A DNA stretch of 32,000 nucleotides from Candidatus Peribacter riflensis. Lineage in GTDB: Bacteria > Patescibacteriota > Gracilibacteria > Peribacterales > Peribacteraceae. The DNA is taken from positions 540,001 to 572,000 of the forward strand of contig CP013062.1 in the NCBI GenBank assembly GCA_001430755.1. The letters are read 5' to 3'. The position numbers were made by a program, and so were the translations under genes. Positions 3,762 through 26,039 of this stretch are shown in pieces. The notes beneath the pieces were generated by a model. It did no database searches and was not told the origin of the DNA. It saw only the letters and a program-made list of their open reading frames with translations. How positions within the stretch are numbered: position 1 is the first letter of the stretch; the number at the start of each line of letters is the position of its first letter.

Positions 3762-5753
3762 CTAGCGCTTGTCCCACTTGTGCCACGGCATCTCCAGTTC
3801 ATCCAGAGGAATGTCATCCAGTGAGACACCGGGGCCCGACACTTTCTTCGAGAGAGAGAAGAGCGAGAAGAGACGCCGGCGGAAGACGATCGACAGAACA
3901 AAACTGATCACCAGCACCGCAACGCCTGTCGATGTCAGGGCCGTGGAATACTGCTCGACGAATGTCACGCGGGAACACTCCGGCGTGCAGGCATTGCCGC
4001 CGTCGCACTCCTCTGCAGCATCGACGATGTGGTCCCCGCAGACCGGCTTGCGGCAGGAGAGTCGGCACGTATTCGGAAGCGTATCGGAATTGGAGATGCC
4101 GTCATCGCACTCCTCTCCGGTCTGCAATACGCCATCGCCGCACTTCTCCAGGCGACATCCGCTGCTGCAGCCATCCCCTCCCTCTGCGTTGCCGTCGTCA
4201 CACTGCTCACCCGCCTCCACCACGTTGTTCCCACAGGTGGGAAGACGGCAGGTATTGGGGCAGCCGTCATCATTGAATTGATTGCCGTCATCGCACTGCT
4301 CGCGTCCCTCCAGCACACCATCGCCGCAAATCGGCAACTTGCAGCTCAGAGGGCACTCGTCGAAGGCATTCCGGTTGCCGTCGTCACACTCCTCACCCGG
4401 CTGGATCGCCCCGTCGCCGCAACGGGCCTTCTTGCAGGAATTGTTGCACAGGTCATCATTCAGGCGGTTGCCGTCATCGCACTCCTCATTCTCCTGGATG
4501 ATGGCATCGCCGCAGCGGGCCCGCTGGCAGCCATTGGTGCAAGAATCGTCGTTCGCCAGATTGCCGTCATCGCACTCTTCACCACGCTGCACAACACCGT
4601 CGCCGCACAGAGGGAGCACGCAACTGTTGGAGCAGGTATCGGTATCGGTGCGGTTGCCGTCGTCGCACTCCTCCGATCCTTCGCGAATGCTGTTGCCGCA
4701 CACGGGCAGTCGGCAGTTATTGGGGCACGGATCCCAGTTATTGAAATTGCCGTCGTCGCACTGTTCGCGTCCCTCGGCCACTCCGTCACCGCAGACCGTG
4801 AGCATGCAGTCATTCGGACAATCATCCAGATTGCTGCGGTTTCCGTCATCGCACTCCTCAACGATTTGCTGCATCCCATCTCCGCAACGGGACGTCTTGC
4901 AGGAGTTGTTACAGGCATCTTCGTTCACACGGTTGCCGTCGTCGCACTCCTCGTTCTGCTGGACAATGTTGTCACCGCAACGCGGTCGCGTGCATTCATT
5001 CGTACAACCGTCCTCCTGTACCTGATTGCCGTCATCGCACTCCTCACCATTCGACACCTCTCCATCACCGCAGCGTACCTGCGGCTGCTCGGGGAGGGAG
5101 GAGACGGAAGAAGACGAAGACGCGGCAGCGTGAAATTCCTCAGAGGAGCTCGCAGGGGCCGGAATACTCTCGGCAGACGCACTGGATGAAGTGTCTGAGG
5201 CAGCTGTCGATTGTTCAGACGATGCCTCTGAAGAAAGCAGAGAGCTGCTCCGCGATGAAGGGCAGGCCGGGAGGAATTTCCACTGACAGCCCCCTTCGCA
5301 GTAGCCGTCGCTGTCGCATGCCGGGGCACCGCACACTCTCCCGCACGTTCCCTCCGCATACTGGATCTTGGTCGTGAGAAGATTCGTCGTGGGATCCAAG
5401 ACATACACCTCCTGCACAGGCGGTTCGCACTCTTCGCCCAGGTAAGGCGTCACCGCCCCATCCCCGCAGAAGAGCGCCGTGCACGTGAGGGAGCACATGC
5501 TCAACCCGTTGAACCGGCCCAAATCGCACTGTTCGCCCTCGCTCTCCTGCAGGAAACTGTCTCCGCAATGAGGGGGAACGCTCTGGGAAGACGAAGAGCT
5601 GGTGCGCGTCGGACAGCCGGGCGTTCCGTAGGGCTGACCGATGCAGTCCAGCACAGGATTCTGTGCGCGCGTGGTCGTGTGCAATGACGTCGCGAGCGTG
5701 ACGAGTCCGACGCTGCAGAGTACGACCGCCAGAAGATGGTGTTTTCTGTGCAT
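3762..5753 (-). CDS. type-I membrane protein with tandem cysteine-rich CGDG...EECDDGN repeats (Myxococcus-type cysteine-rich repeat / DUF4215-like)
   Basis: 663 aa. The N-terminal signal sequence [23 protein letters not shown] is followed by 2 degenerate repeats, a Ser-rich linker and 12 well-formed ~30-aa repeats (CGDGxxxxxEECDDGNxxxxDxCxxxCxxxx). It ends with a TM helix ([14 protein letters not shown]) and a 39-aa charged tail. Confidence 0.85.
3984..5105 (-). repeat. in-frame array of about 12 tandem ~90-nt coding repeats inside the Cys-rich gene
   Basis: CGD/CGN ... (E/Q)CDDGN recurs with a ~30-aa period. Boundaries were estimated from residue positions ~217-590. Confidence 0.75.
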
Positions 5754-6249: not shown

Positions 6250-7141
6250 TTCGCATGATCACGCGCAACTTCGCGCTGCGCGAACGCGGATTCCGGCTCT
6301 GTTCGGCATCGGAGGGAACAATGGCTTTACGGGTGAGCAGAGCGAAAAGAGCGGGATGCAGATCCTGGCCGGTGTCGGGGTGGACCGGGGCAGTGGTCAG
6401 TGTGCGAAAGACCTGCTTCACCCGGCGGTCCTCGAGAGAATGGTAGCTGATCACCCCCATCCGCCCCCCGGGTTTGAGGAGTGAAGGACCAGCAGCCAAG
6501 AGTGAGTCGAGTGCTCCAAGCTCATCGTTGACGGCAATGCGCAGCGCCTGAAACACCTGCGCCATCACGGTCTTTGCGCGCCAGCCGAATGCGGCTTCCA
6601 CCGCGTGCACCACATCGAAGGTGGTGTGCATGATGTGCTCTTTGAGCCTCTCAGCAAGACGACGCGCCCCGCGAACTTCTCCAAATTCCTGCAGGGCATG
6701 CGTGAGATCTTCCTCGGAAATCTGCTGCAGCCATGCGGCAGCGGATACACCCCGGGTGCGATCGAAACGCAGATCCAACGGCACATCCTCACGAAAGGTA
6801 AACCCGCGCTTCGCATCGTCCACGTGCGGCGAACTCAGACCCAGATCTGCGAAGAGCACATCCACCTGCGGGAGTGACAGTTGCTGCAGATCTCTGAAGT
6901 TGGCATGCCGCAGATCCAGATGGCCGGGCAGGGATTTCAGGCGTTCCTCTGCTGAAGCCAGATTTTGGGCATCCGCATCAAGGCCGATGAGCGTGCCGCC
7001 CGACGCCACCTTCTGCAGAAAAGCCTCCGCGTGCCCGCCCAGCCCCAGCGTGACATCGCAGACCGTCTCGCCTTCTTGGGGGTCGAGGAGCGTGAGGGCT
7101 TCTTGGAGCAGAACCGGTGTGTGCACGGGTGAGGGAACCAC
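6230..7141 (-). CDS. rsmH: 16S rRNA (cytosine1402-N4)-methyltransferase
   Basis: 303 aa. HTPVLLQE, DVTLGLGGH, DLGLSSPHVD and ISYHSLEDRRVK are the RsmH/MraW signature motifs. Confidence 0.95.
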   Translation of the reverse strand: MVPSPVHTPVLLQEALTLLDPQEGETVCDVTLGLGGHAEAFLQKVASGGTLIGLDADAQNLASAEERLKSLPGHLDLRHANFRDLQQLSLPQVDVLFADLGLSSPHVDDAKRGFTFREDVPLDLRFDRTRGVSAAAWLQQISEEDLTHALQEFGEVRGARRLAERLKEHIMHTTFDVVHAVEAAFGWRAKTVMAQVFQALRIAVNDELGALDSLLAAGPSLLKPGGRMGVISYHSLEDRRVKQVFRTLTTAPVHPDTGQDLHPALFALLTRKAIVPSDAEQSRNPRSRSAKLRVIMRSAATPA

Positions 7142-7950: not shown

Positions 7951-8042
7951 GGAGAGGTGGCTGAGCGGCCGAAAGCACCACACTGCTAATGTGGTATACG
8001 GGTAAAACCGTATCGAGGGTTCGAATCCCTCCCTCTCCGCCA
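7951..8042 (+). tRNA. tRNA-Ser (anticodon GCU), CCA encoded
   Basis: Hand fold. Acceptor GGAGAGG/CCTCTCC and D arm GCT-GAGCGGCCGAA-AGC. Anticodon stem CCACA/TGTGG with loop CT-GCT-AA. Long variable arm ATACGG/CCGTAT and T arm GAGGG-TTCGAAT-CCCTC. Discriminator G followed by CCA. Confidence 0.9.
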
Positions 8043-8078: not shown

Positions 8079-8342
8079 ATGAACATGTGGTACTTCTACG
8101 TTCTCCAGAGCACGAAGAATCCCGATTACTTCTATAAGGGATCAACGGATAATTTGCAGAGAAGATTACGGCAACACAACCAGAGCTTGGTCACATCAAC
8201 GAAGCCCTTTGGACCATTTCGTCTCGTCTACTATGAAGCATATCTTAGCGAACACGGAGCACGCATCCGCGAGGCTTCCGTCAAGAAAAGCGGCTCCGTT
8301 TCCGTTCCTCTCTTACGAAGAATACGAGACAGTCTTTCTTGA
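8079..8342 (+). CDS. small GIY-YIG nuclease-superfamily protein (UPF0213-like)
   Basis: 87 aa from the internal ATG at 8079. The track ORF start at 7989 would overlap the tRNA. WYFYVLQS...YFYKGSTDNLQRRLRQHN...YYEAY matches the GIY / YIG / R..H.N / E layout of stand-alone GIY-YIG proteins. Confidence 0.7.
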   Translation: MNMWYFYVLQSTKNPDYFYKGSTDNLQRRLRQHNQSLVTSTKPFGPFRLVYYEAYLSEHGARIREASVKKSGSVSVPLLRRIRDSLS

Positions 8343-8717: not shown

Positions 8718-9575
8718 ATGCCTTCAGTACTCGGAGTTGATCTCGGCGGGACGAAGCTGGCCATCGCACGCTTTGAAACGCAATCATGGGCCATTCAGGG
8801 TGCGGAAACGGTGCCCACCGCAGGCAAATCTTTTCCGGTGATCGTGGAAGAGATGCTCGCGGGAATCACAAAATTCCGCACCGCGGATACGCAGGCAGTC
8901 GGCATCGGCGTACCGGGACTCGTCGACCGATCGGGACGCATCCACACCACTCCCAACATCCCCGGCGGAGACGGGTTCCCGCTCCTCGAAATGCTGAAGA
9001 AAGAATGGAAGCTCCCCATCACGATCGAGAACGATTCCTCCTGCTTCACACTGGCCGAGGCCCTGCAGGGCGCAGGGAGGGGGCACCGCGTGGTCGTCGG
9101 CATCACCATGGGAACGGGCGTCGGAGGAGGAATCGTGATCGACGGCAAAATTTTCTCCGGCGAACACGGCTTCGCCACTGAGTTCGGCCACATGCTGCTC
9201 AAGCCGGGAGCTCCTCCGTTCGATTCTGCAAACAAACGCGGAGAAATCGAGCAATTCCTCTCGGGAACAGCGCTCAGAAAACGCTGCCCGGCCGCCAAAC
9301 GTCCCGAGGAAACACTCACGGGACCGACCTGCGCGCATCTGCACGAGACCGTGGTGCGTGAGATCGTCTGGATGAGTTGCAGCCTCATTCACTGTATCGA
9401 TCCCGGCATCATCGTCTTCGGCGGCAGCGCGGGACGGGCACTGCGGCCGCACCTTCCGGCCATCGAGAAAGAACTGAAGAGCTGGCTGCTGCCGAAAAGC
9501 CCCATTCCACACCTCGCCATCGGGGCACTGGAGCATGCGGGAACACTGGGGGCGGCGTTATTAACACAGAAATAG
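8718..9575 (+). CDS. glk: ROK-family glucokinase
   Basis: VLGVDLGGTKLA, GIGVPGLVD, ENDSSCFTLAE and GITMGTGVGGGIV are ROK sugar-kinase motifs. There is no N-terminal HTH, so this is a kinase rather than a repressor. Confidence 0.8.
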   Translation: MPSVLGVDLGGTKLAIARFETQSWAIQGAETVPTAGKSFPVIVEEMLAGITKFRTADTQAVGIGVPGLVDRSGRIHTTPNIPGGDGFPLLEMLKKEWKLPITIENDSSCFTLAEALQGAGRGHRVVVGITMGTGVGGGIVIDGKIFSGEHGFATEFGHMLLKPGAPPFDSANKRGEIEQFLSGTALRKRCPAAKRPEETLTGPTCAHLHETVVREIVWMSCSLIHCIDPGIIVFGGSAGRALRPHLPAIEKELKSWLLPKSPIPHLAIGALEHAGTLGAALLTQK

Positions 9576-9637
9576 TGTCACCCTGAGCACTGTCGAAGGG
9601 TGACACGTGCCATGGTTCGACAGAGCTCACCATGACA
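9575..9637. repeat. two hairpin-repeat units (A: 9575-9606; B: 9608-9637, inverted) between convergent glk and tal
   Basis: Unit A is gtgtcaccc-tgagcactgtcgaa-gggtgacac. Unit B is tgccatgg-ttcgacagagctca-ccatgaca, carrying the same 14-nt loop in reverse complement. Confidence 0.75.
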
Positions 9638-9646
9638 CTTTCCTAT

Positions 9647-10288
9647 TCACTTCTTCACCTTCTCCCAGTCATCCATAAATTTCTTCAGGCCCGTATCCGT
9701 GAGCGGATGCAGGGGGAGCTCTTTGAAAACCGCATACGGGATCGTGGCGATGTGCGCGCCGAGGACTGCTGAACGCAGAATATGCTCCGGCTTTCTGGTG
9801 GAGGCCACCAATACTTCCGTCGGAAACTTATAGTGCTCCCAAGCTTTCATGATATCCGCGATGAGCAACATGCCATCACCGCCCGCATCATCGATGCGTC
9901 CGACAAAGGGGCTGATGATCGAAGCGCCTGCCTTGGCGGCGAGAACGGCTTGAGGGACGGAAAAGACCAATGTGCAATTCGTCTTGATCCCCTTCTCACT
10001 GCAGAATTTCAGCGCCTTGAGCCCCTCCACTGTCATGGGGACCTTCACGACGACATGCTTGTGCCACTTGCTGTATTCCACGGCCTGCTTCTTCATTCCT
10101 TCGGCATCGGTGGCCGTCACCTGCGCGCTGACGCATGGCACGAGCGCGCACATCGCTAGCACTGTCTCTTTAAAATCTTTGCCTTCTTTAGCAACGAGCG
10201 AAGGATTGGTGGTGACGCCGTCCAGCACACCCCACGAGGCAATCTCGGCGACCTGATCGACATTGGCTGTGTCCAAAAATAATTTCAT
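9647..10288 (-). CDS. tal: transaldolase / fructose-6-phosphate aldolase (short type 3B)
   Basis: 213 aa. MKLFLDTANVDQV...GVTTNPSL and the VKVPMT Schiff-base lysine context are typical of the ~215-aa Tal/FSA subfamily. Confidence 0.9.
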   Translation of the reverse strand: MKLFLDTANVDQVAEIASWGVLDGVTTNPSLVAKEGKDFKETVLAMCALVPCVSAQVTATDAEGMKKQAVEYSKWHKHVVVKVPMTVEGLKALKFCSEKGIKTNCTLVFSVPQAVLAAKAGASIISPFVGRIDDAGGDGMLLIADIMKAWEHYKFPTEVLVASTRKPEHILRSAVLGAHIATIPYAVFKELPLHPLTDTGLKKFMDDWEKVKK

Positions 10289-10455
10289 AAGAAAGGAAGA
10301 AAAGAGAAGCGGCTTGCCCTGAAGTCACCGAAGCGTAGCGGAGGTGTACTTCGGGGTATCAAGAAAAAACTTCATAGGCACAGTATGCCCATTGCCTGAG
10401 CGTTACACCAGGTTTTGGGTGAAATGGCTGGCAGGCGCATCCCCTCCTCTGCACA

Positions 10456-11253
10456 ATGCAAGTGATGAAACGGCTCCCATTGCTTCTGGCTCTTTGCCTC
10501 CTCACAGCCTGCACCGCAGAGCCGAAAGAGGCCTCGTCGATTTCTTCTGCATCCTCGGCATCGTCCCTCGACTCCGCTCGGGATGACACTGGGGTGTCAT
10601 CGGCATCTTCTCTTTCTTCTACATCCTCTATTTCTTCTCTTGCCTCTTCCTCCTCTGTTTCCTCCCCTAACCCTACCCCTACCCCTACCCCCTACACCCT
10701 ACGTCTCTCCGTCCCCTTCTCGCCCCAGGCCCCCTTTGCGCAATGGGATGCCCTGCATGAAGAGGCCTGCGAAGAGATGAGCCTGCTGCTCGTGCACCAC
10801 TTTCTCGACGGAACGGACCTAAGCCGTGAGCAGGCGGAAACGGAGCTCCTGGCTCTCATGCAATGGGAAGAGGAACACGGCTACCCACAAGATGTGACGG
10901 TTCAGGAGTTGGGAGAAATTGCGGAGAAGTATTTCGGCTACCAGTCCCGCATCATCGAGAACCCGATGGGAGAGGACTTAAAGCGGCTGCTCGCAGACGG
11001 GCACCCCGTCATCGTGCCCGCAGCGGGAAGGGACCTGAAGAATCCCTTCTTCTCGGGCGACGGTCCCTGGTACCACATGCTCGTGCTCACGGGGTATAAC
11101 GAATTCTTCTTCATCACGAACGACGTGGGGACGAAGCGCGGCGAAGGATACGTCTACCGTTTCGGCACCCTGATGAACGCCATCCACGATTGGACCGGTA
11201 TCAAAGAAAACATCCGGCAAGGGACACGAAGAGCACTGATCATCGAAAAATAA
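10456..11253 (+). CDS. lipoprotein with C39-like cysteine peptidase domain (Peptidase_C39_2-like)
   Basis: Lipobox LLTAC in the signal peptide, then a Ser-rich and PTPTPTP linker. This is followed by VPFSPQAPFAQWDALHEEACEEMSLLLV and GHPVIVP...WYHMLVLTGY. Cys and His occur in the contexts I remember for C39-like domains. Confidence 0.65.
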   Translation: MQVMKRLPLLLALCLLTACTAEPKEASSISSASSASSLDSARDDTGVSSASSLSSTSSISSLASSSSVSSPNPTPTPTPYTLRLSVPFSPQAPFAQWDALHEEACEEMSLLLVHHFLDGTDLSREQAETELLALMQWEEEHGYPQDVTVQELGEIAEKYFGYQSRIIENPMGEDLKRLLADGHPVIVPAAGRDLKNPFFSGDGPWYHMLVLTGYNEFFFITNDVGTKRGEGYVYRFGTLMNAIHDWTGIKENIRQGTRRALIIEK

Positions 11254-11264
11254 TCCGTGCCGAA

Positions 11265-11294
11265 GTGGTGGGTGACTCTGTCGGGCCCCACCAC
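11265..11294 (+). repeat. hairpin-repeat unit E (degenerate loop) 11 nt after the C39-like gene stop
   Basis: gtggtggg-tgactctgtcgggc-cccaccac. It has a perfect 8-bp stem of entirely different sequence. Its loop is related to tgagctctgtcgaa. Confidence 0.6.
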
Positions 11295-11361
11295 TGGAGG
11301 CACACCGCTCAAAGGGAAAGAGAGTACGCGAGAGAAAACCGCAGGTTTGCTTTCGCGCATA

Positions 11362-11493
11362 AACGACGTGGGAACGAAGCGCGGAGAAGACTACGTCTAC
11401 CGCTTCGCAACACTCCTCAATGCCATTCATGACTGGACAGGAGTCAAAGAGGAGATTCGTTCTGGAGCGCGACGCGTACTCATCGTGGAATAG
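11362..11493 (+). pseudogene. orphan second copy of the C39-like gene 3' end (last 43 codons)
   Basis: NDVGTKRGEDYVYRFATLLNAIHDWTGVKEEIRSGARRVLIVE aligns without gaps to NDVGTKRGEGYVYRFGTLMNAIHDWTGIKENIRQGTRRALIIE (11119-11250). The upstream part of track ORF 11257..11493 has no similarity to the parent gene. Confidence 0.6.
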
Positions 11494-11495
11494 GA

Positions 11496-11570
11496 TGTCA
11501 TGGTGAGCTCTGTCGAACCATGACATGCGCCGAATTGTCGCAGTTCGACAGTGCTCACTGTGACAATTCG
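11496..11570. repeat. two hairpin-repeat units (C: 11496-11525; D: 11531-11570, inverted)
   Basis: Unit C is tgtcatgg-tgagctctgtcgaa-ccatgaca, whose 27-nt core tgtcatggtgagctctgtcgaaccatg equals the reverse complement of 9611-9637 in unit B. Unit D is cgaattgtcgcag-ttcgacagtgctca-ctgtgacaattcg, a 13-bp stem with one G-T pair. Confidence 0.75.
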
Positions 11571-11588
11571 AATAAGGCTTTCCAAAAA

Positions 11589-11632
11589 ATTTGCGATTCG
11601 GAATCCAAATCGCAAATCTCTCAATCGCAAAT
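11589..11632. repeat. cluster of three AATCGCAAAT 10-mers (one inverted)
   Basis: atttgcgatt 11589-11598, aatcgcaaat 11608-11617, aatcgcaaat 11623-11632. The first two form an inverted repeat around cggaatcca. Confidence 0.6.
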
Positions 11633-11909
11633 TCCTTATCGTGCGATGAGCATCATCAGTGACAACAGAACAATCACCGAGATATTGATGCCCATAAATG
11701 GAACACCGGACGTTCTCTTCCTGATTGGATAACGCATAAGTGGAGAAAAATGAAAGATCGGGGGAAGCCTAGGGACGGGGGGTGAGGAGGGCAATCAACT
11801 GCCCTTGATCACCTACGGAAACAGCAGTGTGATTCTGAGCAAATTTTGTACCCGGCTTTACTCATCCGCCGTAGAAATCTACACTCCTGCTACCTCCTCT
11901 CCCGATCCT

Positions 11910-14647: not shown

Positions 14648-17600
14648 ATGACAGTATCTTCCTCATTCAAACGCGGCGATATCGAGCAAATTCTGAAGAA
14701 AGCAGACATCTTCCATCTGAGCGCGGAGGCTCGTGTACGTCTCAACTGCTTGCTGTACTACTTCACGCACGGCAGGAACGCTTCCGAGACCGCGTGCCAT
14801 TTCGGCATTGCACGTGCAACGTTCTACAACTGGCTGAAGAAAATTAATCTCCATGATCTCTGTGCACTCGAAAATTGCTCAAAGGCCCCGAAGCACGTAC
14901 CGCAACCGATAACGGACGAGCGAACGGTGGATCTGATCCGCAGGCATCGTATGAGCGATCCTCTCCTCGGAAAGAAGAAGCTCAGCAAACACCTGCGCTC
15001 CGCGCATGGCATCTCTCTCTCTGCATCCACGGTCGGGCGCACCATCAACCGACACGGCTTCTACTTCGCCGATACGCCTGCGCACCGCGCAAAGCGTGAC
15101 GAACGCAGGCTGGATGGATGGCGGAAGGCAGTGGTCCTCGTGAGCACCGCCACAGGCGCCTCCCTCCTCGCCGATGTTCCGTTCGCTCACGCACTGGAAG
15201 GTTCAATCTATGAGCTGCATCCGACATCCCCCGATCAAACTGGTGATGGAGTCCTCGAGGGATCGGCGTTCACCCTGCAGGAAGGGGGCATAACAGACAC
15301 AGCACAACCGCTCCAGGGTTCCGTTTTCACAATCACGATACCGGCAGCCGCTTCGTCTTCCTCTCTGTCGTCGTCTTCCCCATCCGCAACACCGGCTGGC
15401 GGTCCTGCGACGGGCGGAGGACGCCGCACGATCCCCGTCGTGCAATTGCCGTCCTCTCCCTCCTCACCGGCTTCTGCCCCCTCTCCCCCCTCCACACCCT
15501 CTCCACTCAAATTCGGAGAATCTCTCTATGCAGTCCCCTCCCCGACGCTTACGGGGACAGCGAAGACCGGCACTCCCGCGAAAGTGACCGACAGCAAGAC
15601 AGGATCTGCCGTGCCTCCTCCCACCCATACCGACCAAACCGGTTCCTACCGCGAAGCAGCCCCGCCGCTGCCACCTGTCGTCGTTACGCCTTCGTTTGCA
15701 GAAACATGGCTGCCCAGCGTGATCTCTGCAGCAGTCGTATTGACAGTGCTCGCAGGTCTCATCGGCCGTACATGGCTGTACCACGTCATCACCAACGGGT
15801 TGGGATGGCGCTCGTTGCGAACCGTTGCGACGCTCTCGCGCAAGTCTTTCTTCGTGTCTCTGATGGGCGCCTCACTCCTCTTCGCCCTCCTCTGGAACAT
15901 CACATCGGCCAGCGCCGCAACGACCGTGCCGCTCACGCGCTGGTATCAGGGACATCTGCTCAACGCGGATGGAAGCGCGGTCACGACAGCCGTGACCATC
16001 CGGTTCAGCGAATGGAAGAGCGCCGATTTCACCGCCGCTGACCTCACGGCGACCGGCTCGATCAACACATCGGCAACCCACTACGTGAACTGGCAGGAGG
16101 AACACACACTGACACCCACAAGCGACGGATCCTTTGCGGTCGAACTGGGATCCGTCAACGCCCTGCCCGACCTGAGCGCGCTGCCCCCCAGCACGCTGAC
16201 GAGCCTCTACCTGCAAGTGGATGTGAAGGTATCGGGCGCGGCAGACTCGACGTACGACCTGCTCGATTCCAACACGAGCAGTGCAACGACAGACAGAACC
16301 TCGATTCTCTCTCTGCCCTTCGCACGCACTGCCGATCTCTTGGACCAGCGCGACACCGGCACGGCAAGCGGCTCCATCCCCGTGCTCACGACGGGTGGCG
16401 CGCTCTCGCTCGACGGAGACCTGACCATCAATGCGGATAATGAAGCAAGTGACGCCACCCTCACCTTCGGCAACAACCTCCTCAACGAAACGCTCAAGTT
16501 CTCGGCAACTCTCAACCGCTTCGACTTCAGTGATGATGTGTCGATCGGCGGAGACCTGGAGGTGACGGGGACGATGTCGGGAGCATTCCTGCAGATCACA
16601 GGGACAGGGGCATCCCCCCTCATCAAAACTCAGGGGGGGAATATCGGCATCGGCACCGCCACACCAGCAGCGCAGCTGGATGTCACCATCTCCATCGGAC
16701 TCAATGGCGAAACCATCGAACATTGGGACGAGGTGCCGCTGGATGATCCCTACAAACTCAAAGACTGGTTTGATACCACGCAGGGAGCAGGACGCATCAG
16801 CGGCGGCAGAATCACCGCCAACGCCGACGGAACCGTCACGGTCCTCGCGGGCTCGGGCCTCGTGCACATCACCGAGGCAACCGTGCAGGAAAACCCCCTC
16901 GACTGTTCCACATGCGGCCAGATCTCGGATCTCGAATACATCACATGGACCGGCACCTCCGCCCTCGTCCTCACGAACAACGATTACAACTACATCTACT
17001 ATGACTACGAAACGGCCAGCGTGCGCGCCACGACGGATTTCAACGCGATCTCCTTCACGCGGGAGTTCACGCTGGGACGCGCGTACCGCAGGGACACTGA
17101 AGTCATCGTGCGTCTCTGTGGCACGAACCTCTGGAACTTCAACCGCAGAGTGCAGCTCTTCGGCGAGGAGGTGTACCCCATCGTGCGGGCAACCGGCATG
17201 GCGATCTCAGAAGTGGGGACACGGGGACTGGCCGTCACTGCGGGTGTGCTCTGGGCGGAACTGGTCAACCGCTTCGTCACCGATGCCTTCTCGACGGCCA
17301 CCGGCACCTTCTCGACATGGCACAGGGACGGGAGCGGCGGCTGGACGGAGACCACGGGCCAGACACAACTGTCCAATACATCCTACGACGACGGAGATGG
17401 CGTGCTGGGAACTCTGACCAACGGACGGTACGGCATCCACTTCATCTACGTGCTGCACGATTCCACGGTGCACTCGGTCTACGGCCAGGTACAGAACTAC
17501 ACCCAACTCCAGGCAGAGGCGGCCCAGCCTCCGGCATCCATTCCGGACCTGCTGGCTTCGTATGCAACACTCATCGGCAAAGTGATCATCCAGAAGAACG

Positions 17601-18013
17601 GCGCCAACTTCGCCGAAATACAGTCCGCCTTTGAACAGACGTTCGCGGGCGCGGGAACCGTCATCCACAATGACACCTCGGGATTGCAGGGTGGAGTGGC
17701 AGCAGAGTACTACCACCTGACCTCGAGCGAATACACGGGAACAGGATCGGGGGTGTTCGTACGCGCCACCTCTCCGACATTCGGCGGTTCCGTCACCCTG
17801 CCGCTCGGCATCTGGAACTCCACCGGCCGCGTGGGCATTGGTACAGCAACACCAGAGACAGAGCTGGAAGTCATCGGCACCCTGTCGGGTTCCTCCATCG
17901 TCAACTCCAGTGGAGGGGGCTACGTAGGCGCTGCAGCCTGTTACCTCGCCAACGGCACGCTCGGCCATTGCACCAGTGCCGATGGGTCATCCTGCGGGTG
18001 CACGGCGAATTAA
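14648..18013 (+). CDS. giant surface protein 1: IS481/IS3-type HTH module, 3 TM segments, tail-fibre-like ectodomain, Cys-rich C-terminus
   Basis: 1121 aa. Residues 1-145 carry HTH ASETACHFGIARATFYNWLKK, then NCSKAPKH, then STVGRTINRHGF. TM segments lie at ~160-180, ~355-375 and ~401-423, and ASA|ATTVPL follows residue 423. The ectodomain carries GNIGIGTATPAAQLDV and GRVGIGTATPETELEV and ends CYLANGTLGHCTSADGSSCGCTAN. Confidence 0.85.
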   Translation: MTVSSSFKRGDIEQILKKADIFHLSAEARVRLNCLLYYFTHGRNASETACHFGIARATFYNWLKKINLHDLCALENCSKAPKHVPQPITDERTVDLIRRHRMSDPLLGKKKLSKHLRSAHGISLSASTVGRTINRHGFYFADTPAHRAKRDERRLDGWRKAVVLVSTATGASLLADVPFAHALEGSIYELHPTSPDQTGDGVLEGSAFTLQEGGITDTAQPLQGSVFTITIPAAASSSSLSSSSPSATPAGGPATGGGRRTIPVVQLPSSPSSPASAPSPPSTPSPLKFGESLYAVPSPTLTGTAKTGTPAKVTDSKTGSAVPPPTHTDQTGSYREAAPPLPPVVVTPSFAETWLPSVISAAVVLTVLAGLIGRTWLYHVITNGLGWRSLRTVATLSRKSFFVSLMGASLLFALLWNITSASAATTVPLTRWYQGHLLNADGSAVTTAVTIRFSEWKSADFTAADLTATGSINTSATHYVNWQEEHTLTPTSDGSFAVELGSVNALPDLSALPPSTLTSLYLQVDVKVSGAADSTYDLLDSNTSSATTDRTSILSLPFARTADLLDQRDTGTASGSIPVLTTGGALSLDGDLTINADNEASDATLTFGNNLLNETLKFSATLNRFDFSDDVSIGGDLEVTGTMSGAFLQITGTGASPLIKTQGGNIGIGTATPAAQLDVTISIGLNGETIEHWDEVPLDDPYKLKDWFDTTQGAGRISGGRITANADGTVTVLAGSGLVHITEATVQENPLDCSTCGQISDLEYITWTGTSALVLTNNDYNYIYYDYETASVRATTDFNAISFTREFTLGRAYRRDTEVIVRLCGTNLWNFNRRVQLFGEEVYPIVRATGMAISEVGTRGLAVTAGVLWAELVNRFVTDAFSTATGTFSTWHRDGSGGWTETTGQTQLSNTSYDDGDGVLGTLTNGRYGIHFIYVLHDSTVHSVYGQVQNYTQLQAEAAQPPASIPDLLASYATLIGKVIIQKNGANFAEIQSAFEQTFAGAGTVIHNDTSGLQGGVAAEYYHLTSSEYTGTGSGVFVRATSPTFGGSVTLPLGIWNSTGRVGIGTATPETELEVIGTLSGSSIVNSSGGGYVGAAACYLANGTLGHCTSADGSSCGCTAN
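15911..16540 (+). repeat. shared block, copy 1 (collinear with 18887-19516)
   Basis: Constant offset of 2976 nt with no indels. The blocks include a 50-nt identical run (16088-16137 = 19064-19113). Most differences I inspected are at third codon positions. Confidence 0.8.
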
Positions 18014-18322: not shown

Positions 18323-21300
18323 GTGCTGCGCCCGGAATCACGCCCCCAGAGGGAAGACATCGAGAAGCTTCTCCATGAAGCGGAGCGCCTCCAGTTGAGC
18401 GGCGGCGTGCAGCAGAAACTCCAGTGGTTTCTCTACGCCCTCGACCACGACAATGATCCGAAGAGTGTCAGCGAAGAGTTCAATATTTCCTCTTCGACAT
18501 TCCGCCGCTGGCTCAAGCGTTTTGATCCGGATGATATCACCTCCCTCGAAGAGAAATCGCGGAGACCCCATACGGTCCGTGAGCCCGACATCCTCCCGGA
18601 GGTCGTCGAGCTGATCCGCCAGTACCGCGCGCAGTACCCGACGATGGGCAAAGAGCGCATTCACGAGGCCCTGCAGAGAGAACACGACATCGTTGTCTCT
18701 CCTTCGAGCATCGGTCGTATCATTCAACGCGAACGTTTCTTCTTCGCAGATACCTTTTCGCACCTGAAGAAACTCAATCCCAATCCTCCGCCTGCATCAT
18801 CTTCGACTTCCCAACCGGGTGTATCCGCACTCCTCCTGCTCTTCTGCGCCGCCACCGCGGTCTTCCTCTCTGGAACGCCGCAGGCGAGCGCCGCAACGAC
18901 TGTTCCGCTCACGCGCTGGTATCAGGGCCACCTGCTGAACAGCGACGGCAGCGCCGTCACCACAGCCATCACCATCCGGTTCAGCGAGTGGAAGAGCGCG
19001 GACTTCACCGCCAGTGACCTCACCGCGACCGGCTCGATCAATACATCGGCAACCCACTACGTAAACTGGCAGGAGGAACACACACTGACACCCACAAGCG
19101 ACGGATCCTTTGCAGTCGAACTCGGCTCCATCACGGCGCTTCCGGATCTGGCCACGCTCCCGCCCGCAACGCTCCAGAACATGTACCTGCAGGTGGAAGT
19201 GAAGACCTCGGGTGCGGCAGATTCCACCTATGACCTCCTGGATAGCAACACGAGCGATACGGCCATCGACCGCACATCGATCCTGTCGCTCCCCTTCGCC
19301 CGCAATGCAGACCTCCTCGATCAGCGCGATACGGGCACCGCGAGCGGTTCCATTCCCGTGCTCACGAACGGAGGCGCGCTCTCCCTCGACGGTGATCTCA
19401 CCATCAATGCCGACAACGCAGCAGCGGATGCTGTGCTGACCTTCGGCAACGCGATCCTCGCCGAAACACTCAGGTTCTCGACGACGAACAGCCGCTTCGA
19501 ATTCAGTGATGATGTCTACGTCGAAGGAACACTCTCGACCTCCGGCGCACTCGTGATTGCACCAAGACCGGGGACGGAGACGGGCACTACCCTCATCGTC
19601 GATACCAAGGGCTTAGTCTACGATGCAACGAACAAGAGGGTGGGTATCGGGACGGCGACGCCGGAGGCCGCACTGGATCTTACGCTCTCCTCCGCAACAG
19701 AAACGGGCATGATCATCAAAGGCGCTGCCTCCCAAACGACCAACCTGCAGGAATGGCAGGCGAATGACGGAACGGTGGTAGGCTCAATCACTCCGCACGG
19801 CGACCTGACGCTGACCGGGACTAACAGCCCCGGAGGAAGATTCATTCAGATTTTCCCGTGGAACCAGCACGACAATAATTCAGCCAAGATCGCTATCTGG
19901 TCGAGCAATTTGAATTATTCAACGTTGCAGGGCACTTCACTGACGTTCAACAACAATAATATCGGATCTGCAGGGGTCGGACTCGGAAACGGATCCAATC
20001 TTTCGGTGATTGATGCTTCAGGTAACCTGACCACGGCGAATGCCGGCGGACTTGCAATCGGCGCAGCCGGAACCGCAACACCCTTTGGCACCCCGCCTTC
20101 AAATGGAGCAATCATCAGCGGTAACGTCGGCATCGGCACCACCGCACCCGAAACCAAGCTCGAAGTCGTCGGAACGATGAGCGGTACGAAACTCAAGATC
20201 ACCGGAACGGGATCCCTCAGCGATCTTACGTTCCCGTCCATGCAGCTCGGCACATCCACCTATTCCACGGTGCGAGACTTCATGAATTCTTTCGGCTCCA
20301 CCGGCCGCAAATCAGGGGGCGTCATTGCTGATGCCGGATCCTCGACCGTGGCGGTGACGGGAGGAACGGGTTTCATCAAGGCAACGGACGATGACGACGC
20401 CCCGTTGCTGTTCTTCGACTTCCCCGCCCCGGCCAACATCAGCATCCCCGCCGGTTCCACACGGTACATCGGCGTCGAGTACAACAGCGGCTCCCCACAG
20501 GTCGTCGCCCGGACGTCATGGAACTGGAACCTGGATACCGAGTTCCCCTTGGGCGCGGTCATCAACGAAAACGTGGGCGGCATCGACGAGCTGTACATCG
20601 AAAACAATCCCTGGTGGGTGACGGATGGCACAACGAACATCATCGAAGCCATCAGAAGCCTCGGGCTCATTCGCAGGGACCAGACAACGGGAGGCCTCAT
20701 GCTCTCTGTCACGGGAACCCGCAACATCGCTGTCAGCGCAGGAACGCTGTGGAGCAACTTAAATGAGTTCGACTTGGCTGCCGTCGATACCTCCGCGGCG
20801 GGAACAATAGAGTACTACTGGTACAAAGCGGGAACCGGCTGGCAAACATCGGATGTTTCGCAGTACTCAGTGACGCAGTGGAACGATGTCACGCAGGCGG
20901 CACTGCAAACCATGGAGAACAACAAGTACGGGAACGTCTGGGTGTACACGGAAGTGGTCAATGACAACCCCTCGGTGGCCTTGCTGTACCCGCAAGCCCA
21001 GTATAACACCGCTGCGGAGGCAGAGGCCACGAATGCCCCCTCCAACATCCCGACGCACATTACCGAAATGGGAATGCTGATCGGACGGATCATCATCAAG
21101 AAAGGGGTGGATACCCCGGTTGCGGTCGAATCGGCATTCGGAACAACCTTCAGCGCCAGTGTCACCACGGACCACGGCAATCTGGCGGGCCTCACGGACG
21201 ACGACCACACGCAGTACCTCCTCTTAACTGGTAGAAGTGGACAGCGCGTGAATGACTCCGTGGAATTCACCGGAACGGCCTCCGGACGCATCTTAAGCTT

Positions 21301-23182
21301 CGGCACGCGACTGACGGGATCAGGCAATGTCTCCATCCGCACCCTCACGGACTCCACCACCGCCTTCCAGGTGCTCGATGCTGACGGAGGTAATCCCGTC
21401 TTCAACATCGATACGGACAATGAGCGCGTGGGCATCGGCACCACCGCGCCCGAAACCGCACTCGAAGTCGTGGGCACCGCCTCGGGCAACTACATTTTCG
21501 GGCAGCAGGGACTGGGCTCCTCGGGGGCGCTCGCAGTCCTCGGGAACATCTATAACAGAGCGGATAATGCGAAGCATTACTTCGGCGCGGGCAACGACGC
21601 CTCCATTACCTACGACGGAACGAATATGTTGATAAACCCCAAGGAAGTGGGGACGGGGGAGTTGAGGGTTTCGGGCAACGTGAACATCGGCTCAACAACC
21701 ACAGCAAACATGGCGCAGGTTGCAGAGCTGAATGTAAGAGGGACGGATGCGGGCATTTTGATTGACGGCAATAATTCCAACAACTGGCTCAAACTCCAAT
21801 ATTCAACTGGCGGGGGCCATGTTCTCTTCACAACCCCAGCAGTCGAGTGGGTCTACCGTCTTAACCAAGCAAGTCTTGACGCTGATTTCGTGATTGGCAG
21901 GTACGCAGCCAATATCGTTGAGATGCGAGGCAGGTACAACTACAACGCTGGGGTAAGCCACAGCCTTCTTTTGACAGGTGGGCGATGGAATAATGCCCCC
22001 GCTGGGAATCTCTACCTTCGTGGAGGACAGGGGCTTGGAGTCGGTGCGCCTGGTGTCATTAAGCTTCAATCACCCGACGGAACGCAGGATATTCTTACGA
22101 CCAGCGCAACAGACAATCACCTTCATTCTCCAGACAACATCAAGCACCTATACGGCACAGGGGACGACGCCTCCATTACCTATGACGGGACGAACATGGT
22201 GATCAATCCGAAGGAAGTGGGAAGTGGATACCTGAAAATCCCCGGCACCGCCTCGGGCAATTACATCTTCGGGCAGCAGGGGCTCGGCGCATCGGGTGCC
22301 GTGGTGATCAAAAAACTCTCCGGCACGGGCACGGGCAACATCTTCATCGTCGATACCAAGGGACTCGTCTACGATGCGACGAACAAAAGAGTGGGGATTG
22401 GGACGGCAAGTCCGGAGTATACACTCGACGTGAACGGAGGGGCGGCTGTGAGCAATCTCCAAATGGGAGATGTGGGGTACGGGGCGTTCTTCCCGGGCCT
22501 GACGTACAAGGGAAACGCAGCGGGAGGCTACGCGATGTTCACCACAAACGGAGGGGCCTACACCGTCCTGAATAAGAGCACCGCCGACGGACACATCGGA
22601 TTCAGGGTGAACAACGTGGACAAGATGGTCGTCGATGAAAACGGCAACGTGGGCATCGGCACAATCACTCCCGAAAACAGGCTCGAAGTCGTCGGCTCCA
22701 TGTCCGGCCGCACGCTGCAGGTGACGGGCACGGGGGCGGCACCGTTGATCTACACGGATACGACAACGGGAAGAGTGGGCATTGGCACAGCAACACCGGG
22801 CTACGTGCTCGATGTGCAGCACGCCACCGACAAGATCAACTCCAAGAACGGCTACCTGACGGACGGAGCCGACTACGCCGAGTACTTCCCGAATGAAGAG
22901 AATATTCTGGAAGGTTCGCTCGTCGGCATCAACATGGAAACGGGCAAGGCGCGCCGGTACCGCTTCGGCGACGAATTCATCGGCATCGCATCGGATGGAC
23001 ACGGATTCGTGGGCAACGGGAAGAGGGGCATCGAAGATAACCCGAAGTATGCGCTCGTGGGGCTGCTCGGCCAGCTCACCGTTCGTCCGGAGGAAGTGAC
23101 GATCAGGGGACGCCTGGTCTTTACCCGGGACGGCAAACGGATCGGTCTCTTGCTCGAGAACGGAAAAGTGCTGCTGCGGTGA
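18323..23182 (+). CDS. giant surface protein 2: IS481/IS3-type HTH module, single signal-anchor, tail-fibre-like ectodomain, Peptidase_G2-like C-terminal domain (GTG start)
   Basis: 1619 aa. HTH VSEEFNISSSTFRRWLKR, then EKSRRPH, then SSIGRIIQRERF. The hydrophobic segment GVSALLLLFCAATAVFLSGTPQASA|ATTVPL follows. There are six xxVGIGTxxPExxL(E/D)V motifs. The C-terminus reads GYLTDGADYAEYFPNEENILEGSLVGINMETGKARRYRFGDEFIGIAS. Confidence 0.85.
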   Translation: MLRPESRPQREDIEKLLHEAERLQLSGGVQQKLQWFLYALDHDNDPKSVSEEFNISSSTFRRWLKRFDPDDITSLEEKSRRPHTVREPDILPEVVELIRQYRAQYPTMGKERIHEALQREHDIVVSPSSIGRIIQRERFFFADTFSHLKKLNPNPPPASSSTSQPGVSALLLLFCAATAVFLSGTPQASAATTVPLTRWYQGHLLNSDGSAVTTAITIRFSEWKSADFTASDLTATGSINTSATHYVNWQEEHTLTPTSDGSFAVELGSITALPDLATLPPATLQNMYLQVEVKTSGAADSTYDLLDSNTSDTAIDRTSILSLPFARNADLLDQRDTGTASGSIPVLTNGGALSLDGDLTINADNAAADAVLTFGNAILAETLRFSTTNSRFEFSDDVYVEGTLSTSGALVIAPRPGTETGTTLIVDTKGLVYDATNKRVGIGTATPEAALDLTLSSATETGMIIKGAASQTTNLQEWQANDGTVVGSITPHGDLTLTGTNSPGGRFIQIFPWNQHDNNSAKIAIWSSNLNYSTLQGTSLTFNNNNIGSAGVGLGNGSNLSVIDASGNLTTANAGGLAIGAAGTATPFGTPPSNGAIISGNVGIGTTAPETKLEVVGTMSGTKLKITGTGSLSDLTFPSMQLGTSTYSTVRDFMNSFGSTGRKSGGVIADAGSSTVAVTGGTGFIKATDDDDAPLLFFDFPAPANISIPAGSTRYIGVEYNSGSPQVVARTSWNWNLDTEFPLGAVINENVGGIDELYIENNPWWVTDGTTNIIEAIRSLGLIRRDQTTGGLMLSVTGTRNIAVSAGTLWSNLNEFDLAAVDTSAAGTIEYYWYKAGTGWQTSDVSQYSVTQWNDVTQAALQTMENNKYGNVWVYTEVVNDNPSVALLYPQAQYNTAAEAEATNAPSNIPTHITEMGMLIGRIIIKKGVDTPVAVESAFGTTFSASVTTDHGNLAGLTDDDHTQYLLLTGRSGQRVNDSVEFTGTASGRILSFGTRLTGSGNVSIRTLTDSTTAFQVLDADGGNPVFNIDTDNERVGIGTTAPETALEVVGTASGNYIFGQQGLGSSGALAVLGNIYNRADNAKHYFGAGNDASITYDGTNMLINPKEVGTGELRVSGNVNIGSTTTANMAQVAELNVRGTDAGILIDGNNSNNWLKLQYSTGGGHVLFTTPAVEWVYRLNQASLDADFVIGRYAANIVEMRGRYNYNAGVSHSLLLTGGRWNNAPAGNLYLRGGQGLGVGAPGVIKLQSPDGTQDILTTSATDNHLHSPDNIKHLYGTGDDASITYDGTNMVINPKEVGSGYLKIPGTASGNYIFGQQGLGASGAVVIKKLSGTGTGNIFIVDTKGLVYDATNKRVGIGTASPEYTLDVNGGAAVSNLQMGDVGYGAFFPGLTYKGNAAGGYAMFTTNGGAYTVLNKSTADGHIGFRVNNVDKMVVDENGNVGIGTITPENRLEVVGSMSGRTLQVTGTGAAPLIYTDTTTGRVGIGTATPGYVLDVQHATDKINSKNGYLTDGADYAEYFPNEENILEGSLVGINMETGKARRYRFGDEFIGIASDGHGFVGNGKRGIEDNPKYALVGLLGQLTVRPEEVTIRGRLVFTRDGKRIGLLLENGKVLLR
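18887..19516 (+). repeat. shared block, copy 2 (collinear with 15911-16540)
   Basis: See copy 1. It encodes ATTVPLTRWYQGHLLN...LTINADN...LTFGN...FSDDV in both genes. Confidence 0.8.
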
Positions 23183-24731: not shown

Positions 24732-26039
24732 GTGAAACGGCTCCTCCGCTCCCTCAAGAAAGCAATCTCCCAGCGCAGTCCCGTGCGCCTGGTCTGGCAC
24801 CATGCCAAGGCCTTCGTGGCCGCCCTCGTGTACGGATTCCCCGCACGAAAACTCACCGTCATCGCAGTCACCGGCACCGACGGCAAGACGACGACGGTCG
24901 GCATGACGGCGCACATTCTGGCCGATGCAGGCATCCGGGCGGGCGCGCTCTCCACGGCTTTTCTGCGCATCGGGGATCACACGGAATGGAACGCCACCCA
25001 GAAGACCTCTCCCTCCCCGTTCCTCATTCAGAGATTCCTGCGCCGCCTGGTGTCGGCGGGCTGCACCCACGCCGTACTGGAGGCCTCCTCTCACGGATTG
25101 GTACAGGGACGTCTGTGTTTCACCTGGCCAAGCATCGCCGCCGTGACGAACGTGACGCCCGAACATCTCGATTACCATGGCACGATGGAGCAGTACCGTC
25201 GCGACAAGGGGCTGCTCTTCATGATGCTCCAGGGAAGAGGAACGAAAGTCCTCAATCGCGATGACGAGAGCTTCACAACATTCAGCCGCATCCCATCGGC
25301 GCAGACGCTCTCCTTCTCCGTGCGGTCCGACGATGCAGATTGCTCGGCGACGGACATCGTCGAGACAGCCGAGGGCACGCAATCCATGCTGCGCACCAGA
25401 GAACGGAGCACGCTCCTGCCGCTTTCGCTCAGACTCCTCGGCGCATTCAATGTTGAGAACGCCCTGTGCGCCATTGCCTGCGCTCATGCCTGCGCTGTAT
25501 CGGTGGATCACGCCGTGAAAGCACTCAGGAATTTCGCCGGTGTTCCGGGGAGGCTGGAACGAATCGATGCAGGGCAGGATTTCGCGGTGTACGTGGATTT
25601 CACCGTCACTCCCGCCGCGTACGAGAAGACCCTTCTGACCCTGCGCGCCACCCTGCAGCCGGGGAACCGACTGCTCGTGCTCACAGGCAGCTGCGGGGAC
25701 CGCATGCGCGAGAAGCGCCCGATCGTGGGCCGTCTGTGCTCTACGCTCGCCGACATCGTCGTGATCAGCAACGAAGACCCCTACACCGAAGATCCGCAGC
25801 AGATCATTGACGAGGTGTGGGCGGGCATCGATCCATCGCACTGCGAGGCGCACAAGATTTTTGACCGGAGGGAAGCCATGGAGTTTCTCTTCCACAAAGC
25901 CGGACCCGGCGACGCTGTGATCCTCTGCGCCAAAGGCGCCGACACGACCATGATGACCGCCGGGGGGCAGATCCCGTGGAACGAGCGTGAAATTGCACGG
26001 GAGCTTCTGAAGAAGATGTCTGGCGAAACCCTTGGGTAA
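24732..26039 (+). CDS. murE: Mur ligase family, MurE-like (GTG start), short N-terminal domain
   Basis: P-loop VTGTDGKTTT at residues ~47-55, then TPEHLDYHG, NRDD, and GSCGDRMREKRP aligning to the MurE GCGGDRDxGKRP region. NEDP occupies the position of the DNPR motif. Confidence 0.75.
   Translation: MKRLLRSLKKAISQRSPVRLVWHHAKAFVAALVYGFPARKLTVIAVTGTDGKTTTVGMTAHILADAGIRAGALSTAFLRIGDHTEWNATQKTSPSPFLIQRFLRRLVSAGCTHAVLEASSHGLVQGRLCFTWPSIAAVTNVTPEHLDYHGTMEQYRRDKGLLFMMLQGRGTKVLNRDDESFTTFSRIPSAQTLSFSVRSDDADCSATDIVETAEGTQSMLRTRERSTLLPLSLRLLGAFNVENALCAIACAHACAVSVDHAVKALRNFAGVPGRLERIDAGQDFAVYVDFTVTPAAYEKTLLTLRATLQPGNRLLVLTGSCGDRMREKRPIVGRLCSTLADIVVISNEDPYTEDPQQIIDEVWAGIDPSHCEAHKIFDRREAMEFLFHKAGPGDAVILCAKGADTTMMTAGGQIPWNEREIARELLKKMSGETLG

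Follow-up and report, generated by a model that had tools for sequence, protein, structure and literature searches.

The stretch of DNA analysed here (the window) is 32,000 nucleotides (nt) of contig CP013062.1 from Candidatus Peribacter riflensis, a candidate-phyla-radiation (CPR) bacterium. Between its ROK/glucokinase and transketolase genes lie several small hairpins. An earlier note on this DNA had described five of them (units A to E) as sharing one loop on differing paired stems, and had read A-B and C-D as inverted composites around tal and a C39-like peptidase gene. Based on our data, four of the five are probably two independent copies of a non-autonomous palindromic repeat of about 62-90 bp, hereafter the twin hairpin. 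The locus contains the following features:

8718-9575, + strand: ROK/glucokinase gene.
9575-9638, - strand: twin hairpin 1 (B then A on this strand).
9575-9606, + strand: unit A, gtgtcaccc-TGAGCACTGTCGAA-gggtgacac; partner type, inner triplet CCC/GGG; 54.4 bits with the covariance model of the family.
9607-9638, - strand: unit B, gtgtcatgg-TGAGCTCTGTCGAA-ccatggcac on the - strand; invariant TGG type; 57.3 bits.
9647-10288, - strand: tal, a gene of the transaldolase/FSA family.
10456-11253, + strand: gene of a C39_2-like peptidase.
11363-11635, + strand: lineage-specific block of about 273 nt, carrying twin hairpin 2.
11495-11569, + strand: twin hairpin 2 (C then D).
11495-11526, + strand: unit C, atgtcatgg-TGAGCTCTGTCGAA-ccatgacat; TGG type; 55.6 bits.
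11532-11569, - strand: unit D, gaattgtcgcag-TTCGACAGTGCTCA-ctgtgacaattc on the + strand; partner type, inner triplet CAG/CTG; 51.3 bits.
From about 11805, + strand: transketolase gene.

Twin hairpin 1 takes up nearly all of the 71-nt gap between the convergent ROK and tal genes: the first base of unit A is the G of the ROK stop codon TAG (9573-9575), and unit B lies 8 nt from the tal stop codon (9647-9649). Unit C begins 1 nt past the stop codon of an orphan 3' fragment of the C39 gene. The exact loop TGAGC(A/T)CTGTCGAA is present in A, B, C and D. Searched with the loop pattern TGAGCNCTGTCGAA, the window gives four exact matches and one more at two mismatches, while about 1.2 matches at two or fewer mismatches are expected and five were reached in none of 100 shuffles. 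Stem irregularities are confined to one G.T or C.A position in unit B and one G.T position in unit D. The first 27 nt of B, on the - strand, are identical to the first 27 nt of C, and over their 30-nt arms these two units show 97% complementarity. As the note had it, A/B and C/D make up inverted composites.

A covariance model built from 76 family units finds only A to D in the window (51-57 bits, E values of 1e-14 to 1e-16) and misses unit E (11265-11294) at E<=10. The shared loop on differing paired stems thus holds for A to D and not for E. Against Rfam, the whole window yields two tRNA matches only at gathering scores, and 9400-11800 gives no match at E<=10.

We then scanned one genome per species with the pattern TGAGCNCTGTCGAA-N12-42-TTCGACAGNGCTCA, leaving the stems unconstrained. 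The paired pattern was found at 41 loci beyond the window, none of them in synteny with the window genes. Thirty-five are in Peribacter, Peribacteraceae or Peregrinibacteria metagenome-assembled genomes (MAGs), with 2-7 exact pairs per genome. The other six are a duplicate contig filed under an archaeon, two Vineibacter loci, and one each from a betaproteobacterial MAG, Mucilaginibacter and Marinifilum. A plasmid collection held no copy of the Peribacter element. Besides the seeded copies, the covariance model detects about nine further units in 313 kb, and the density of further sites is about one per 40-60 kb, which extrapolates to roughly 10-30 sites per Peribacteraceae genome of about 1.25 Mb.

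The anatomy of the element is uniform. All 38 Peribacteraceae pairs, the window's two included, consist of one TGG unit and one different, inverted partner, so that a twin hairpin is two modules of about 30 nt in inverted orientation with a short spacer, the loops standing 16-40 nt apart. The TGG module is near-invariant (TGTCATGG-TGAGCNCTGTCGAA-CCATGRCA, with TGTCATGG and CCATGRCA forming the stem). The partner module has the same loop and a TGTCA/TGACA outer stem around an inner triplet TCC, CCC, CAC, CAG, CAT or TCT, and the matching 3' triplet is always present. Few unpaired units were found.

Covariation was computed on 76 aligned units. Stem cells are paired in 82.5% of cases compared to 65.9% in shuffles, and the covariation score is 0.462, compared to 0.188 in shuffles (reached in 0 of 500) and 0.07-0.13 with slid partners. 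None of the 76 units breaks any of the three inner pairs, at which 17, 37 and 34 double changes are counted, and all four Watson-Crick types occur among the two pairs outside TGTCA. Judged from the alignment, pairing is clearly maintained in the stems. Some of the diversity among stems is due to inheritance between sub-families (TGG, TCC, CCC, CAC and CAG types) and therefore does not represent many independent events; the outer pairs, however, vary from copy to copy. The further copies and covarying stems anticipated in the earlier note were both found, and its claim that the structure is under selection is supported by the covariation and qualified by this sub-family inheritance. Neither the loop nor the 5' arm varies, TGTC being present in 76 of 76 units, whereas the 3' arm is variable.

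The units fold stably. As DNA, single units have fold energies of -10.4 and -8.6 kcal/mol (z about -4), and fold z-scores as RNA or DNA range from -3.8 to -7.1. The minimum-energy fold of each composite is one long hairpin with its two loops paired to each other, in which the unlike inner triplets become internal loops or, in C/D, G.T pairs. Loop-loop pairing finds no echo among the copies: the variable loop base of the two units matches 13 times compared to 15.9 expected, with no covariation. Since the inner triplets are always complementary within each unit, the comparative evidence favours two separate hairpins, although thermodynamics allows a long hairpin of the kind seen in repetitive extragenic palindromic (REP) sequence doublets forming hairpins (REPINs). 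Hypothetically, the conserved flanks of the loop could also pair (U-A, G.A, A.G, G-C) and so lengthen the stem, leaving a variable apex.

At orthologous sites, copies are gained, decaying and lost. Comparison among other species gives every state: an intact pair, one unit alone, a partner interrupted by an insertion of about 35 nt, or no copy. For example, the pair at 3855 of L022 is conserved at 4005 of L029 (L-numbers are labels of the compared contigs or loci), and one pair is shared by L013 and L021. The pair at 3191 of L039 corresponds to a single unit at 1752 of L022, where the partner is split by about 35 nt. In L005 and L007 a pair stands opposite a single unit with a different loop centre, and some orthologous sites carry unrelated sequence instead. 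Conversely, near-identical copies occur at unrelated sites of different species: twin hairpin 2 shares 96% identity over 75 nt with an in-frame copy that L038, from another species, has in a GT4 glycosyltransferase gene, and 94% with a copy in L025.

Any type of intergenic region can be occupied. Based on crude open reading frame (ORF) calls, four copies are tandem with their neighbours on the same strand, nine are tandem opposite, six convergent and five divergent. The earlier note placed all units at gene 3' ends, which is correct for the window; the family at large also has copies upstream of genes and in-frame within them.

The same ORF map places twelve pairs within long ORFs. In at least 7 of the 38 pairs the frame runs through the element as CHGE(L/P/R)CRTMT...(S)FD(R/S)AQxDx, adding about 22-24 residues; in a carbamoyltransferase gene only the FDRAQDD half is read in that frame. 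The in-frame hosts encode the carbamoyltransferase, a Mur ligase, a GT2 and a GT4 glycosyltransferase, a TsaB-like protein, an SNase-LTD protein and a giant protein. A Pfam domain extends across the insert in three of them (Carbam_trans_N in L003, Mur_ligase_M in L027 and Glyco_tranf_2_3 in L034), and in L038 Glyco_trans_4 and Glycos_transf_1 lie on either side of it. Copies survive in genes when their length and frame leave the ORF open.

The L003 carbamoyltransferase illustrates such an insertion. The protein has 608 aa compared to 586 aa in most homologues, and its nearest orthologues, of 589 and 586 aa (alignment identities of 93% and 91%), are without the 22 residues. These residues are placed in a variable loop between GKG and ILKE. 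This copy has a 3' arm TGTCA in place of TGACA, a stem mismatch that removes an in-frame TGA. Likewise, the Mur-ligase-like gene of the window (24732-26039, + strand; 56% amino acid identity) is without the 72 nt (24 codons) present in L027. PDB homologues align on both sides of the carbamoyltransferase and the Mur ligase inserts. A protein search with the concatenated insert peptides gave one weak match.

Peregrinibacteria carbamoyltransferases contain many other, unrelated lineage-specific inserts. In our alignment these fall in three loops, including the loop of the L003 insert, and show a recurrent (A/E)xPRTxEPRSGDxGSR (proteins P0124-P0129, P0141, P0163, P0186, P0191, P0209, P0215, P0218 and P0230). 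By eye, these inserts also look palindrome-encoded, and in-frame insertion of repeats may be general in the phylum.

Next, we considered what the element is. We favour, as the likely explanation, that the family of A to D is a non-autonomous selfish palindromic element resembling REPINs and Rickettsia palindromic elements (RPEs). This reading is based on the dispersal of the copies, their near-identity across species, their presence, absence and decay at orthologous sites, the lack of any orientation link to neighbouring genes in the crude ORF calls, and the lack of a U-tract combined with survival in frame. Its movement, now or in the past, would be as DNA that passes through a single-stranded hairpin stage. 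The loop core TGAGC-N2-3-GTCGAA would be recognised, together with the invariant 5' arm TGTC, by an enzyme provided in trans; the stem would count only as a helix, hence the covariation under this proposal. The heterotypic inner triplets would prevent the two units from forming one perfect long palindrome, which cells tolerate poorly. Both window copies are best explained as bystanders at gene ends.

Several observations weigh against a selfish element. First, no mobiliser was found. The complete published P. riflensis annotation lists no REP-associated tyrosine transposase (RAYT; K07491) and no TnpB (K07496), its only "transposase" entries being one K07488 gene and two large helix-turn-helix (HTH) proteins of the window; a tblastn search with E. 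coli RayT against 1.08 Mb of element-bearing loci, made without a whole-genome profile search, gave a best E of 0.5. Second, no target-site duplication or clean empty site is readable, the comparisons of filled and empty sites falling in diverged loops or spacers; transposition is consequently deduced from presence, absence and decay. Third, copy number is low for a selfish repeat, and our gene-context statistics are crude ORF calls rather than proper gene prediction. Fourth, on the sense strand the TGG unit precedes its partner in each of the seven in-frame copies, even though the other orientation has open frames, and random insertion alone does not predict such a shared orientation. Finally, the conservation of the loop and 5' arm across species and phyla is far beyond neutral and could reflect a host function instead; it would fit either a widespread enzyme that reads hairpins or a cellular function.

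One such function would be in RNA. The units could be host-useful elements at gene 3' ends, either bidirectional terminators without a U-tract or stem-loops that protect mRNA, with the forward and reverse units serving both strands. The window fits this picture, since pair 1 lies between convergent stops (0 and 8 nt off) and pair 2 lies 1 nt past a stop; the folds are stable, as RNA or as DNA, and the pairs on a phage contig described below lie between co-directional genes. Nevertheless, no T-run follows the units and a terminator scan called no terminator-like site at any of them, at least four copies lie in Pfam-confirmed genes (Mur ligase, carbamoyltransferase and two glycosyltransferases) and three more in long ORFs, divergent and tandem-opposite contexts occur, and the sites are not kept in sister species with the same genes. 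Nor does the family choose a strand: G.T versus A.C asymmetry favours one strand at 27 positions and the other at 14. We consider a function at RNA 3' ends unlikely, and with it the terminator option of the earlier note.

The strand counts were also examined for a strand-specific RNA reading, which we rejected. Position 6 of hairpin 1 has 11 G.T and no A.C, and position 4 of hairpin 2 has 13 G.T and no A.C, while positions 6-8 of hairpin 2 have no G.T and 10 A.C. The counts are thus specific to positions and pick out no single transcribed strand.

A second alternative is that the family is a strict REPIN, mobilised by a RAYT that is divergent, encoded elsewhere in the genome or recently lost. 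Two inverted palindromic units with a spacer match the definition of a REPIN (PMC3337134, PMC3116915), and a long-hairpin fold is predicted for each composite. The absence of K07491 from the annotation and of any RayT-like ORF from the 1.08 Mb of loci speaks against it, as do the lack of RayT on Sphingobium or Comamonas replicons that carry the generic unit, the lack of a conserved GTAG-like 5' foot, and the copies inside genes. We give this version a small chance.

As a third alternative, the loop and TGTCA arms could be a cellular binding motif, such as a nucleoid or topoisomerase site or a DNA-uptake sequence in inverted pairs, with the hairpin potential being secondary. The inverted pairs near gene ends recall the paired DNA uptake sequences (DUS) of Neisseria, and CPR bacteria are thought to depend on DNA uptake. 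The conservation of a 13-14-nt core across species and of TGTC in 76 of 76 units also suits a binding motif. However, one site per 40-60 kb is far below known uptake sequences, the core is common to unrelated phyla and phages, unlike a species-specific tag, and sites are freely gained and lost. Moreover, inner and outer stem positions covary and are not conserved in sequence, which argues for a folded single strand and not a duplex site. A binding motif is therefore improbable.

The least credible alternative, that the composites are recombination sites inverting or mobilising the 1.85-kb tal and C39 segment, draws on their inverted arrangement, on the 97% complementarity of B and C over 30 nt and on the duplicated C39 3' end beside one composite, and we judge it very improbable since tal and the C39-like gene are syntenic residents in four species, three of them without a pair at either site, all 24 contigs examined that carry this tal protein show one arrangement, and twin hairpins stand singly at dozens of unrelated sites.

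The synteny data come from tal homologues on contigs of four other Peribacteraceae species (tal identity of 89, 88, 83 and 81%). The order tkt<-C39<-|tal->...<-ROK is kept in the same orientation in 4 of 4 sister species. Three of the four have no twin hairpin at either window site, and the fourth (L050) has a different pair directly after tal, which faces the other way and whose loop centres are GTC and GTA. Because gene order is kept in the four species, the tal-C39 segment is resident; it was not imported by the hairpins and is inverted in no species examined, which removes the functional bracketing proposed in the note. Within P. riflensis, the tal protein is also encoded on CP013064.1 (1,248,112 bp, GCA_001430845.1), which matches the window at 100% over 20,288 nt, and on many Rifle-type metagenome contigs. 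Five contigs compared in detail are identical over the region except for two small indels in L045. A 34-nt indel between L044 and L045 was considered as a hairpin insertion and rejected, as it falls within the body of the C39 gene.

The gap between tal and ROK has another occupant elsewhere. In L047 (6678-7058) and L048 (6691-7062) it is filled by a small gene of the 23S_rRNA_IVP / bAvd-like four-helix-bundle type, in the place taken by twin hairpin 1 in P. riflensis.

Twin hairpin 2 is part of the lineage-specific block at 11363-11635. At 11363-11493 this block has the orphan C39 3' fragment; the C/D pair and some 65 nt that include the palindrome ATTTGCGATTCGGAATCCAAATCGCAAAT make up the rest. 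L047 and L048 do not have the block, although the flanks on both sides are conserved there. The 131-nt orphan fragment is 87% identical to the L048 gene and 73% to the resident gene 110 nt upstream; being nearer to the gene of another species, it suggests import or replacement of a gene end and not a simple local duplication. The two window copies would have different histories: pair 1 would have inserted between ROK and tal, and pair 2 would have come inside the block together with the foreign-looking C39-like 3' fragment. The block also carries, at 11589-11632, a palindrome ATTTGCGATTCGGA/TCCAAATCGCAAAT followed by another copy of AATCGCAAAT.

Unit E appears to belong elsewhere. The stretch 11254-11362, after the C39-like gene, looks like a separate conserved structured non-coding element that includes unit E, as judged from the window, L047 and L048; it has no Rfam match (E<=10). 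The unit E hairpin sits within GUGCC-GAA-hairpin-UGGA-GGCAC. The orthologous spacer of L048 has an inner stem CGUGGG/CCCGCG, and that of L047 has an outer stem AUCGC/GCGAU and an inner stem ACAGGC/GCCUGU with a UUCG loop. A second hairpin follows unit E, with a conserved loop AAAACCGYAGGUUUG on a stem CGCGAGAG/CUUUCGCG in the window and CAUGAGAG/CUCUCAUG in L048. By eye, both stems show compensatory changes in L047 and L048; MAFFT misaligned the three sequences and RNAalifold was uninformative.

Twin hairpins with this loop core also turn up in Proteobacteria, in Bacteroidota and on phage contigs. Vineibacter has stems TTCATGG/CCATGAA with a 14-nt loop or with the 13-nt loop TGAGCTTGTCGAA, and three pairs in 2.5 kb with a third hairpin in each spacer. 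Mucilaginibacter has three tandem units of about 120 nt with one pair in each. Peribacteraceae loci also show loop centres GTA, GGA and GTC as well as 13-nt loops, so the conserved core is TGAGC-N2-3-GTCGAA. A generic unit occurs up to 13 times per Sphingobium replicon and also in Comamonas, Polaromonas, Methylotuvimicrobium, Sphingomonas and Novosphingobium, and its copies hardly ever fall within annotated genes.

In a viral-contig collection, 8 loci have the general 14-nt pair pattern and 61 a 13-nt pair pattern; by our own estimate, a pattern with 22 fixed bases is not expected there by chance. These elements are mostly G+C-rich, of the form CCGTTCG-nnn-TGAGCYTGTCGAA-n'n'n'-spacer-mmm-TTCGACARGCTCA-m'm'm'-CGAACGG. 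The low-G+C contig L108 is a phage, as it encodes a tape-measure-like protein and a glucosaminidase; between its co-directional genes it has three TGTCA-type pairs with a 13-nt loop (3923-3962, 6880-6919 and 9224-9263). Phages could act as carriers or vectors of the family.

Translation of the relatives with a 13-nt loop gives PFALSLSKG, VRPELVEG, LRQAQHER and FDKLRANG, which bears out in kind what the earlier note said of SLSKG- and FDKLR-like spurious peptides. Pfam and NCBIfam have no family built on the translated repeats. Full-text searches of the literature with the peptide strings and with loop 12-13-mers brought up unrelated primers and proteins only, and a concept search for palindromic in-frame elements in CPR found none.

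It is possible, though we would not bet on it, that the twin hairpins of Peribacter belong, as one branch, to a superfamily independent of RAYT and spanning CPR, Alpha-, Beta- and Gammaproteobacteria, Bacteroidota and phages, with the core read by a hairpin-specific enzyme or mobilisation route. If so, the ubiquitous "hypothetical proteins" with SLSKG, VRPELVEG and FDKLRANG would stem from this superfamily, which would also have written short peptides into CPR housekeeping enzymes.

Other features of the window were noted in passing. The published P. riflensis annotation has an 86-aa putative endonuclease starting 633 nt before the glk start (PMC4736985, supplement 2), a layout that agrees with the window starts at 8085 and 8718. 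The ORF at 8085-8342 (+ strand) encodes an 85-aa stand-alone GIY-YIG protein (K07461) beside a tRNA gene (7951-8039). It is not listed by gene callers in L047, L049 and L050, and a 44%-identical copy is in the same place in L048. P. riflensis has about three GIY-YIG genes of this kind, and the window gene shows no linkage to hairpin elements at other loci.

Further downstream, 14648-18013 and 18323-23182 (+ strand) are two adjacent, very large paralogous ORFs of 1121 and 1619 aa, 80% identical over 656 nt and both with N-terminal transposase-type HTH_28/HTH_32 domains. The published annotation, through KEGG, labels both as transposases. L049 and L050 have large HTH proteins in the corresponding position, which makes these ORFs look resident rather than mobile. 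Upstream of transketolase, a non-coding stretch of about 125 nt (11636-11760) is nearly invariant in an alignment of three species. It contains CCUGAUUGGAUAACGC, loosely resembling a thiamine pyrophosphate (TPP) riboswitch, with no match in Rfam at E<=10.

Taken as a definable DNA element, the twin hairpin and its relatives account for a very common annotation nuisance, as SLSKG, VRPELVEG and FDKLRANG are its translations, and the consensus and covariance model are usable for masking it. A 1.25-Mb CPR genome tolerates palindromic inserts in genes of housekeeping enzymes; in the literature searched, high-frequency insertion of palindromes into genes is described mainly for Rickettsia. The family also raises the question of which enzyme reads a loop conserved from CPR to Proteobacteria to phages without a RAYT. 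For the window itself, an invertible or mobile tal-C39 cassette is no longer suggested.

Among the options offered in the earlier note, REP-like elements fit best. Twin hairpins share with REPs and REPINs the short imperfect palindromes, the inverted doublets, the mainly intergenic placement, the gain and decay of copies and the ability of the doublet to fold as one long hairpin. The two unit types of a twin hairpin recall Y and Z REPs, which E. coli combines in its bacterial interspersed mosaic elements (BIMEs). REPs and REPINs have a cognate RAYT, whose gene usually has repeats on its flanks, whereas none was found for twin hairpins in the annotation, the 1.08 Mb of loci or the two replicon sets. 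A GTAG-like 5' tetranucleotide reportedly stands beside the REP stem (said to be described by Nunvar 2010 and Messing 2012); it is absent from twin hairpins, in which the positions outside TGTCA vary and are merely complementary. Twin hairpins conserve the loop and the 5' arm and not the stem, and number tens per genome whereas REPs number hundreds. About a fifth of their copies are intragenic and in-frame, while REPs are extragenic, and their loop core is common to several phyla, while REP sequences are lineage-specific.

RPEs are elements of about 100-150 bp in ten families, restricted to Rickettsia (PMC10969869). Like them, twin hairpins inhabit a small reduced genome and lie in-frame in unrelated housekeeping genes, adding a peptide while the protein is kept, and no transposase is known for RPEs either. 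By description, they are set apart by a length of 62-90 bp, by their two loop-conserved hairpins and by a CPR host with relatives in phages and other phyla.

[quoted passage not shown] Twin hairpins are likewise short, non-autonomous, mostly intergenic and sometimes fused to ORFs, with inverted ends: the inverted units share TGTCA...TGACA and the loop, as terminal inverted repeats would. Each end differs from that of a MITE in being a hairpin with a non-palindromic conserved loop, and no parent insertion sequence (IS) with matching ends was seen in the loci examined. Intrinsic terminators are a poor match, given the 14-nt loop and the lack of a U-tract after the stem.

HUH endonucleases act on hairpins at rolling-circle origins, at IS200/IS605 ends and at the nonanucleotide loops of circular Rep-encoding single-stranded DNA (CRESS) viruses. 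The likeness to twin hairpins, a conserved loop on a variable yet paired stem, is one of logic only; such a pattern would be expected where an enzyme recognises the loop of a single strand in its folded state. None of the loci examined has an HUH-type gene linked to the elements, and no nick site is defined. Overall, the family is unusual in its loop-centred consensus across phyla and phages, in that no RAYT was found, and in its in-frame inserts in CPR housekeeping genes. On the best reading of these comparisons, it would combine the architecture of REPINs with the behaviour of RPEs.

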